Positions 28,661 through 29,448 of a DNA stretch of 29,617 nucleotides are shown here, one piece after another. This DNA is from Escherichia phage Midge: sequence record PV287706.1. The stretch is one strand, 5' to 3'. Within the stretch, counting starts at the first letter, position 1. Every line of letters begins with the position of its first letter. The position numbers and the translations under genes were made by a program. The notes under the pieces are model-generated. The model worked only from the letters and a program-made list of their open reading frames with translations. It was not told the DNA's origin and did no database searches.

Positions 28661-29092
28661 TTAGCTGGTTACCAGATTGACACCGAGCGAAAGCAGGTTC
28701 GTCACCGCACCGGCAATAACTCCGGGCGTCCCGTCTTTCACCGCACTGATAATCTTATCGCCCATCGTTTCATTACCGCCGAGCGCCGCGGGCTTTTTGT
28801 TAAGCACGGCGAGTGCTTTCTCGGTCAGGCGCACATCCCGAAAATAGGTCTGATGGTCTGTTTCATACTGGATGTAGCCATTTTCACTTAAAAAAGTGAA
28901 TGTACCCTCAACCACACTACGCAACTGATTCAGTGCTTTCATTTCTGGTGAGTTAAGTTGGTCAAAGTAGTCATCAGGTAGCGCGGCGTTAAATTTTTCG
29001 TAGGTGATGACCTGTGGCACCGGGAAGTTATCCCATAGCACCGCAAAAACTTCCGCCGTCTGCTGGTTAAATAATTCGAGGTTTTTGGACAT
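28661..29092 (-). CDS. Hypothetical 143-aa protein with a Gly-rich hydrophobic C-terminal tail; cargo gene near cos
   Basis: Good RBS (GAAAGGGAA) before the ATG; no family recognised; C-terminus GTPGVIAGAVTNLLSLGVNLVTS looks like a membrane-anchoring or glycine-zipper helix; sits in the position P2 uses for tin/old. Confidence 0.6.
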   Translation of the reverse strand: MSKNLELFNQQTAEVFAVLWDNFPVPQVITYEKFNAALPDDYFDQLNSPEMKALNQLRSVVEGTFTFLSENGYIQYETDHQTYFRDVRLTEKALAVLNKKPAALGGNETMGDKIISAVKDGTPGVIAGAVTNLLSLGVNLVTS

Positions 29093-29150
29093 GCATAATT
29101 CCCTTTCATCAATAGACCCGTTTGCCGATTGGGCAAAAAAGCTGACTGTA

Positions 29151-29282
29151 ATGGCTTCAAATAACGACCTGAGTTCTCGTGAGGTGGAAAGCTACACCGA
29201 AAAAATGGTCGAGCAAGCCAGTAAAGATGAGCTTACGGTCGTTATCAAACACCTGTTAAACCACATCAGAATGCACAAATAA
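29151..29282 (+). CDS. Possible small protein (43 aa), divergent from the 143-aa gene
   Basis: Short form MASNNDLSSREVESYTEKMVEQASKDELTVVIKHLLNHIRMHK of the 29004..29282 ORF; no clear RBS; the long form overlaps the divergent gene start. Confidence 0.25.
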   Translation: MASNNDLSSREVESYTEKMVEQASKDELTVVIKHLLNHIRMHK

Positions 29283-29298
29283 AAGGATCTATATCAAT

Positions 29299-29400
29299 AT
29301 GTTATCTCTCGTTTATGAAAATCCGTGGACGACGGTTTTTCTGCTGATTGTTGCCAGCATGTGCCTCAATAGTGTTATTGGCGCATTGCGCGGCCAGTAA
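29299..29400 (+). CDS. Possible 33-aa hydrophobic small membrane peptide
   Basis: ATG with an AAAAGGA RBS 11 nt upstream; MLSLVYENPWTTVFLLIVASMCLNSVIGALRGQ has one predicted transmembrane helix; a terminator follows. Below the ORF-track size cutoff. Confidence 0.3.
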   Translation: MLSLVYENPWTTVFLLIVASMCLNSVIGALRGQ

Positions 29401-29420
29401 TCGCGACAAAACCCGACCCA

Positions 29421-29448
29421 AACCGGCACCGTGAATGCCGGTTTTTTT
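29421..29448 (+). terminator. Rho-independent terminator next to cos
   Basis: Perfect 8-bp stem aaccggca / tgccggtt with a 7-nt loop, followed by a 7-T run. Confidence 0.75.

Follow-up and report, generated by a model that had tools for sequence, protein, structure and literature searches.

Introduction

TisB and DinQ of Escherichia coli are inner-membrane peptides of ∼27-29 amino acids (aa) that form a single helix, are controlled by LexA and act as SOS-induced type I toxins; TisB is amphipathic and charged. MgrB, AcrZ, MgtS and SafA are proteins of less than 50 aa with one transmembrane helix, which are encoded on the chromosome and bind larger membrane proteins as their known partners. Here we describe p33, a 33-codon gene located next to the cohesive end site cos of Escherichia phage Midge (sequence record PV287706.1; the whole stretch of 29,617 nucleotides (nt) that was analyzed is called the window). 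We compare p33 with these peptides, with Orf97, the product of the second gene in the p95 SOS operon of phage 186, and with the cargo genes of P2-like phages. Two genes lie upstream of p33, the 143-aa cargo gene p143 and the 63-aa gene p63, and related loci are numbered with the letter L.

With Orf97, p33 has its position in common: both occupy the slot between tum/DinI and the terminator t95b, adjoining cos and on the same strand. Orf97 is likewise accessory, with hydrophobic membrane-type segments at its start, and according to the 186 record its expression from a plasmid blocks 186 infection. The two differ in size (243 versus 33 aa) and have no sequence similarity, and they occur together in one related locus (L053), which means that they are not alternatives to each other. 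p33 is similar to TisB and DinQ in size, in hydrophobicity and in lying downstream of a LexA box, while it differs from them in having few charges, in the absence of homology, in its location in a prophage cargo region and in being often pseudogenised. The conserved Asn and the small residues within the p33 helix would suit helix-helix contacts of the kind made by MgrB, AcrZ, MgtS and SafA; unlike these proteins p33 is phage-borne, and it has no homology to them.

The slot between the replication gene and cos/portal corresponds to the gpA-gpQ hotspot of P2-like phages, which is variable and often holds anti-phage cargo (PMC9122126). The location of p33 matches this hotspot, with the replication gene at 25831-28053 and cos at the window end, and in relatives the portal and terminase genes follow just beyond. 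p33 resembles the morons and other cargo of the hotspot (old, tin, retrons) in this location, in a presence that varies between close relatives and in the terminator that follows it. It differs from them in that its terminator belongs to the phage backbone and is present in 186, and in that no promoter of its own and no match to a defence model were found.

We read p33 as a dispensable accessory membrane-peptide gene on transcripts that end at t95b, with an exclusion or modulator role, and give this reading a probability of roughly one half. With p33, the best-studied cargo hotspot of P2/186-like prophages gains a micro-protein gene that is validated by comparison.

Comparative evidence that p33 encodes a protein

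The features at p33 are as follows (window coordinates).

29283-29287, plus strand: Shine-Dalgarno core AAGGA, 11 nt before the ATG of p33
29299..29400, plus strand: p33, gene for the 33-aa single-helix hydrophobic peptide MLSLVYENPWTTVFLLIVASMCLNSVIGALRGQ
29420..29448, plus strand: intrinsic terminator, t95b homologue (9-bp stem at 29420-29444, 7-nt loop, T7 run to 29448)

The original prediction, made from the window alone, had pointed to a hydrophobic 33-aa open reading frame (ORF) with its own AAAAGGA ribosome-binding site (RBS) at this position. Both are indeed present: the mean Kyte-Doolittle hydropathy over residues 10-30 is 1.90, and the AAAAGGA motif, which contains the AAGGA core, overlaps the stop codon of p63 (29280-29282), 16 nt separating the two genes. 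Almost the entire peptide is one hydrophobic helix with a conserved YENPW cap, a near-invariant Asn24 and intrahelical small residues. The helix carries one acidic and one basic residue, the single Arg lying near the C-terminus, and p33 is a plausible single-helix membrane peptide. In all loci it is the final reading frame before t95b and cos. We also considered p33 as a lipoprotein or signal peptide and rejected this, since neither Lys nor Arg occurs in the N-terminus, where Glu7 lies, and no consistent lipobox is seen. By inspection against the pattern [LVI][ASTVI][GAS]C the window has A-S-M-C, with a disallowed Met at -1, and only some variants (V-A-S-C) fit.

The last 1.6 kb of the window is overlapped by 32 ORFs with lengths of 20 aa or more. 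A frame of 33 codons is expected by chance, and support for p33 therefore comes only from comparison with relatives. Viral contigs were scanned with two degenerate DNA patterns, one for the N-terminal and one for the C-terminal half of p33, which retrieved 46 and 43 contigs, respectively, almost the same set. Because both scans are biased toward intact copies, a set of 45 loci anchored on p143 was built as an unbiased counterpart. A scan of genome contigs gave five matches, two of them true (Citrobacter sp. and Escherichia sp.) and three by chance.

The reading frame was conserved across related prophages, the check that the original prediction had named. Nearly all loci retrieved by the patterns have the 33-codon frame with identical start and stop, and the ATG is found in 39 of the 39 unique sequences of this set. 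The minimum numbers of substitutions at the three codon positions were 18, 13 and 38, and the ratio of nonsynonymous to synonymous polymorphism (pN/pS) was 0.31 compared to 0.56-2.0 in the other five frames. For the intact copies of the unbiased set the corresponding values were 16, 16 and 30 substitutions, with a pN/pS of 0.30 in the p33 frame against 0.53-1.71 in the other five; as in all of these tests, the sequences are related and recombining and do not represent independent samples. A column-shuffle null for the unbiased set gave a pN/pS of 0.83 ± 0.29, none of 400 shuffles reaching the observed 0.30, and in the other shuffle test on p33 the fraction was 0.007. The ratio for the N-terminal half remained the same when loci were chosen only via the C-terminal pattern.

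The kinds of change also resemble those of a protein. Amino-acid replacements are conservative (V/I, L/M, A/T/V, M/C), and two single-base deletions are the only indels within the 99 coding nt among the unique sequences of the pattern-selected set, while the 20-nt spacer after the stop codon is full of indels and is the least conserved part. Replacement of the upstream DNA in L043, L056 and L016 brought new and better-spaced Shine-Dalgarno sites before p33, such as AAGAGGA-5 nt-ATG in L043 and TAGAGGA-5 nt-ATG in L056. In L081 the original ATG is lost and an in-frame ATG is found five codons upstream. From these comparisons we infer that p33 is a real protein-coding gene, with purifying selection on the protein where it is intact.

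In the p143-anchored set p33 was intact in 25 of the 45 loci and had an alternative start in one, while it was disrupted in 18 and had no homologous DNA in one. The lesions are of at least ten kinds and represent separate events, among them loss of the start codon, internal stops, a frameshift, general decay, a frame cut short by insertion, and a 65-aa ORF in the place of p33. This frequent loss and the lack of p33 in 186 indicate that selection is weak or conditional.

p33 might not be a functional protein at all, being either a decaying relic or DNA conserved at the level of the nucleic acid, for example as a 3' untranslated region (UTR) or small RNA (sRNA) element ending at t95b, or as promoter elements for a leftward gene. 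The disruption or absence in 19 of the 45 unbiased loci, with its variety of lesions, and the absence from 186 agree with this, as do the long Shine-Dalgarno spacing and a promoter-like site on the opposite strand over the p33 RBS region in one type of relative (described below). Conservation of a nucleic acid would, however, leave unexplained that the substitutions are frame-specific and protein-like, with third positions varying most and a pN/pS that none of the 400 shuffles reached, that the RBS was re-created after upstream replacement, and that the start codon moved in frame in one locus. Moreover, the spacer between stop and terminator, where an sRNA seed would sit, is the least conserved part, and no Rfam family matches. 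We consider a non-protein explanation unlikely. A cos or packaging site as the cause of the conservation was rejected separately, because 186 lacks this segment and still packages its DNA, and because only one reading frame is under constraint.

The SOS-type transcription unit and the proposed role of p33

The window is a complete genome of a 186-like phage (Peduoviridae) with cos at its right end. Its end aligned to the right ends of 186, SEN1 and FSL SP-004, which places the stop of the window at cos. The last kilobase is 95% identical to Salmonella phage FSL SP-004 and 82% to Klebsiella phage ST147-VIM1phi7.1, and parts of it match SW9, SI22, SEN1 and 186, several of these matches reaching the very end of linear records. 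The remaining features of the right end are, from left to right:

25831-28053: replication gene A, the start of the right-end gene order
28111..28152, plus strand: homologue of the p95 promoter (TTCCCA ... TACTGT), by alignment to the p95/LexA site of 186
28137-28152: perfect LexA box CTGTATAAATATACAG, inside the p95 promoter homologue
28174-28356, plus strand: 60-aa ORF (PHROG 1993)
28360-28593, plus strand: gene for a 77-aa DinI-family protein (Pfam DinI, E 7e-24; PHROG 189)
28596-28638: boundary hairpin of 15 bp without U-tract on the plus strand, followed by the conserved GGGGTTGAACAACGAGCCCCGCGAGGCGTTAGC
28661..29092, minus strand: p143, cargo gene of 143 aa (PHROG 2266)
29091..29282, plus strand: p63, gene of 63 aa (PHROG 2454), predicted three-helix bundle
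29449..29617: cos-proximal backbone up to the right cohesive end, conserved in all relatives including 186

These features reproduce both ends of the 186 SOS operon, with the p95 promoter and its LexA operator upstream and t95b as the end. The LexA box is the sole occurrence of CTGT-N8-ACAG with zero mismatches in the window, and the p95 promoter homologue is the likely source of SOS-induced rightward transcription toward the small ORFs. The counterpart of 186 tum (28174..28593, plus strand) is split in two here, into the 60-aa ORF and the DinI-family gene, where 186 has a single tum.

The terminator aligned to t95b, the terminator of the p95 (SOS) transcript in the 186 annotation. 186 possesses this terminator but lacks p33; the terminator is therefore an element of the phage backbone and not the peptide's own. 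The strong terminator that had been predicted at 29421-29448 behind the 33-aa ORF thus exists, but it belongs to the 186-type SOS operon. Its folding energy is -12.7 kcal/mol, and the reverse strand also forms a hairpin, which is followed by a weaker T-rich tail. Five terminator-like sites were found, compared to 2.0 ± 1.7 expected from shuffles. In the 39 unique sequences the stem of t95b is near invariant, with changes mostly to G-U pairs, and the loop varies.

We propose that p33 is probably translated from rightward transcripts terminating at t95b. Candidates are a joint message of p63 and p33 and transcripts that read through from the early operon or from the p95 operon under LexA control. 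In SEN1-, SW9- and L043-type relatives, where by gene order all genes from p95 to t95b point in one direction, the SOS operon would end with p33. Read-through from p95 in the window would have to pass the hairpin at 28596-28638, which is without a U-tract, and would then run antisense to p143. The peptide would insert in the inner membrane, with the C-terminal Arg inside according to the positive-inside rule, and would act via helix-helix contacts with itself or with a membrane protein of host or phage. One helix, an Asn and small residues are features that suit inner-membrane insertion and helix-helix association in small membrane proteins generally. Our best guess is a modulator of the lysogenic-conversion or superinfection-exclusion type. 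Such a role is favoured because Orf97 of 186, a membrane protein in the same slot, blocks 186 infection when expressed from a plasmid, and by this analogy it appears more likely than that of a toxin held in check by p143 or p63.

The main functional rival is an SOS-induced, membrane-damaging peptide resembling the type I toxins TisB and DinQ; firing of p95 would then lead to depolarisation or permeabilisation of the inner membrane. As such toxins are, p33 is a small hydrophobic single-helix peptide of ∼30 aa (33 aa, hydropathy 1.90). It lies downstream of the perfect LexA box and p95 and upstream of the terminator of that operon, and its position in SEN1- and L043-type relatives is behind the DinI/Tum genes, with the same orientation. 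What makes a toxin distinctly unlikely is that the helix carries just two charged residues, one acidic and one basic, and so differs from TisB, that no toxin family was matched in Pfam, PHROGs or PADLOC, and that in the window a convergent gene and a hairpin part p33 from p95. Rfam and a promoter scan of both strands over 28000-29617, which are weak tests, revealed no antisense-RNA partner or gene and no long regulatory 5' UTR.

A further reading, which we regard as equally improbable, would make p33 a representative of a class of SOS-linked phage micro-proteins that, as a 33-aa transmembrane helix, block DNA entry of other phages (minimal superinfection-exclusion factors) or reset host membrane physiology, p143 and p63 being a separate hotspot module shut off by antisense read-through from p95. 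On that account p33 would be made at prophage induction, or at a low level in lysogens. As an SOS-timed membrane effector or exclusion factor, should it prove to be one, p33 would rank among the smallest phage proteins of this kind known and would be genetically tractable.

p33 persists independently of p143 and p63

The original prediction had suggested that a small membrane peptide next to the cargo gene p143 might be its toxin-like or regulatory partner. The gene context of p33, determined for 53 loci, was distributed as follows:

full p143 and p63: 22
p143 cut to 17-20 codons, p63 intact (SW9 type): 15
partial p63: 3
neither p143 nor p63: 12
cannot be judged: 1

In DUF2806-type loci a 334-aa DUF2806 gene takes the place of p143, the p63 remnant has stop codons and p33 is intact directly downstream. 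In SEN1- and L043-type loci both neighbours are missing, and p33 comes next after DinI and the boundary hairpin, in the same direction. The DUF2806, SEN1 and L043 types are all among the 12 loci with neither gene. Conversely, p143 and p63 were intact in all 45 p143-anchored loci, including the 19 with a broken or absent p33. The members of an obligate pair do not persist intact alone; p33 does so without p143 or p63, and these do so without p33, which argues against an obligate toxin-antitoxin or partner relation. Such dispensability in both directions is difficult to reconcile with an obligate toxin-antitoxin pair, and it lends no support to the suggested partnership with p143. We conclude that p33 is an independent, dispensable accessory gene that has been lost repeatedly.

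In an idea close to the earlier one, p143, p63 and p33 would form a functional three-gene cassette; p33 might, for example, serve a defence or toxin-antitoxin system of the hotspot as an accessory membrane effector or as a regulator. In loci with p143 the order and spacing p143(-)/p63(+)/16 nt/p33(+) do not vary, almost all of these loci have at least p33 remnants, and remnants of p63 precede p33 even where the cargo is different, which suggests common descent; the locus also lies in the known gpA-gpQ hotspot adjoining cos (PMC9122126). Such a functional cassette is nevertheless very unlikely, given that at least 27 loci lacking p143 or p63 have an intact p33, that p33 is broken or absent beside intact p143 and p63 in 19 of 45, that PADLOC has no model for any of the three genes, and that the arrangement appears only as "hypothetical" in Table S5A, with no activity reported (PMC9122126).

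Several observations weigh against our own reading of p33 as a dispensable exclusion-type or modulator peptide. The gene is broken or missing in 42% of the unbiased loci (19 of 45) and 186 does without it, its Shine-Dalgarno spacing of 11 nt is longish, and the substitution tests share the non-independence noted above. No homology of p33 to any characterised protein was found in Pfam, PHROGs, PADLOC, phmmer or the literature, and the proposed role is drawn only from its position, from analogy to Orf97 and from what is generally known about small membrane proteins. With regard to expression, a scan for consensus promoters on both strands over 28000-29617 found none. The convergent p143 and the -31.6 kcal/mol hairpin lie between p95 and p33 in the window, where read-through is an assumption. 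Finally, remnants of p63 are found upstream of p33 in most contexts; together with the constant gene order they point to a p143-p63-p33 cassette as the possible ancestor of all p33 copies, and a looser, non-obligate functional link is possible.

Promoter-like matches were also seen in relatives, on the opposite strand or overlapping the ATG, and none was adopted. One of them, in the DUF2806-type loci, is a minus-strand site (TTGATA-16-TACATT, preceded by TG) that overlaps the p33 RBS region and faces the DUF2806 gene.

Annotation of p33 and database searches

The expectation that routine annotation would miss the 33-aa ORF held for RefSeq/PGAP and for most phage records, which omit p33 and often call an antisense ORF instead. 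It did not hold throughout: one Klebsiella phage record annotates p33 (QBQ71544.1), and the exact peptide and close variants have been deposited as "uncharacterised protein" from at least 1000, 964 and 676 contigs (e.g. A0A376PRW0 and A0A447N0M7). The competing gene model is:

29302..29574, minus strand: antisense ORF of 90 aa, called by RefSeq/PGAP and some phage records ("hypothetical protein", "aI protein")

This ORF is annotated in RefSeq/PGAP (for example as WP_001177885 and WP_171960263), in SW9 (as "aI protein") and in SEN1. Over the stretch in common with p33 its frame has a pN/pS of 0.58-0.65, and variation falls mostly on its first codon position. Length and ends vary between loci, from 54 to 90 aa, and the ORF crosses the terminator and the cos-proximal repeats. 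Because of the first-position variation, the changing length and the crossing of the terminator, the antisense ORF is probably a mis-annotation and not a gene. Flagging it in favour of p33, and correcting the model of the neighbouring 63-aa gene (see below), are practical outcomes of the comparison.

Searches of Pfam, PHROG and PADLOC gave nothing significant for p33, which accordingly was not placed in any toxin family. A phmmer search against 1.84 billion representative proteins returned its own family only, plus a repetitive 933-aa artefact, and a tandem query of two p33 variants returned only three proteins. A full-text literature search for the peptide sequence yielded no paper. No credible Rfam family was found over the region, and a sub-threshold match of MIR531 to an inverted repeat near cos was rejected as spurious. 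p33 is an uncharacterised addition to the small hydrophobic accessory proteins of temperate phages.

The neighbouring genes p63 and p143

p63 matched PHROG 2454 with an E value of 9.7e-40, residues 1-63 aligning to profile positions 1-64 of 64. Its frame is open from 29004, and the 63-aa model is also annotated in FSL SP-004, the Klebsiella phage, SW9 and RefSeq. The ATG at 29091 is present in every relative checked, while the internal ATG at 29151 is CTG in Klebsiella-type relatives. A possible 43-aa protein at 29151..29282 had been proposed; this ORF exists, as the C-terminal two thirds of the conserved 63-aa gene. The pN/pS of p63 is 0.34 overall, 0.72 for codons 2-21 and 0.21 from codon 22 to the end. 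As selection is weak on the former and strong on the latter, a 43-aa short form from an alternative start is a minor possibility, and some databases hold 43-aa versions. The predicted structure of p63 (AlphaFold2, predicted local distance difference test score (pLDDT) 75) gave no significant match in a fold search.

p143 matched PHROG 2266 over its full length (E 3.4e-61, residues 1-142 on profile positions 1-143 of 144). Its structure was predicted with confidence: behind a winged-helix domain come two conserved C-terminal helices in which small and hydrophobic residues are abundant; a fold search returned generic winged-helix matches only, and nothing useful in BFVD. The divergent start codons of p143 and p63 overlap by 2 nt (CATG, 29090-29093), an arrangement kept in 45 of 45 related loci. 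It follows from this overlap that the RBS and promoter of each gene lie inside the other and that the 5' ends of the two mRNAs are complementary. p63 accompanies p143 in all 45 loci and is never missing, which makes it a plausible partner of p143. Both families occur in Enterobacterales only and are hypothetical everywhere. PADLOC has no defence model for p143, p63 or p33, so the locus matches no known defence system in that resource, and the genes of the p143/p63/p33 arrangement are listed only as "hypothetical" for the P2 gpA-gpQ hotspot in Table S5A of Rousset et al. 2022 (PMC9122126).

Borders of the cargo slot and variation between relatives

The boundary hairpin has a folding energy of -31.6 kcal/mol (z -4.9). 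With its flank it comes right after DinI in the window; in 186 its place is behind orf97, and in SEN1 it immediately precedes p33 (window 28596-28670; L005 1505-1575). The stop codon of p143 falls within the conserved GGGGTTGAACAACGAGCCCCGCGAGGCGTTAGC sequence. On its left side the variable cargo appears to be bounded by the hairpin and GGGGTTGAACAACGAGCCCCGCGAGGCGTTAGC, as a conserved border or a recombination joint. On the cos side, repeated GCATGCA motifs and an inverted repeat around CGCCAGAGCTGGCGCG (29476-29515, 29517-29583) are near invariant in all relatives including 186; presumably these are terminase or cos recognition elements. It is this inverted repeat that produced the spurious MIR531 match.

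Between these borders the cargo varies in several ways. SW9-type phages (L003, L008, L010 and 12 further loci) have a deletion equivalent to 28664-29034 of the window, keep p63 and p33 and carry a 69-aa ORF upstream; this truncation of p143 is probably a single ancestral deletion. A family of 65-69-aa ORFs without Pfam match (MHRLPGEIPQHKTKSIKLMAIV... or MHHVPFDTPKHKTHSVKLMAVV...) is located upstream of the p143 remnant, or downstream of p63 in place of p33; it was found in L088, L101 and L106, at 1215-1424 in L003 and, in L004, at -307..-98 relative to p33. The DUF2806 gene (334 aa, minus strand) replaces p143 in L009, L026, L032, L033, L039 and L047. A Klebsiella phage (L002, 177-1413) and E. 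coli O157:H7 prophages (L007, 1204-2440) have a pair of helix-turn-helix (XRE-type) and reverse-transcriptase genes immediately upstream that converges on p143, and no DinI gene was found in the examined stretch of these two loci. E. coli E66 (L006, 3651-5230) has two inserted genes between cos and the portal gene, one for a P-loop NTPase and one hypothetical, which shows that both sides of cos carry cargo in this phage group.

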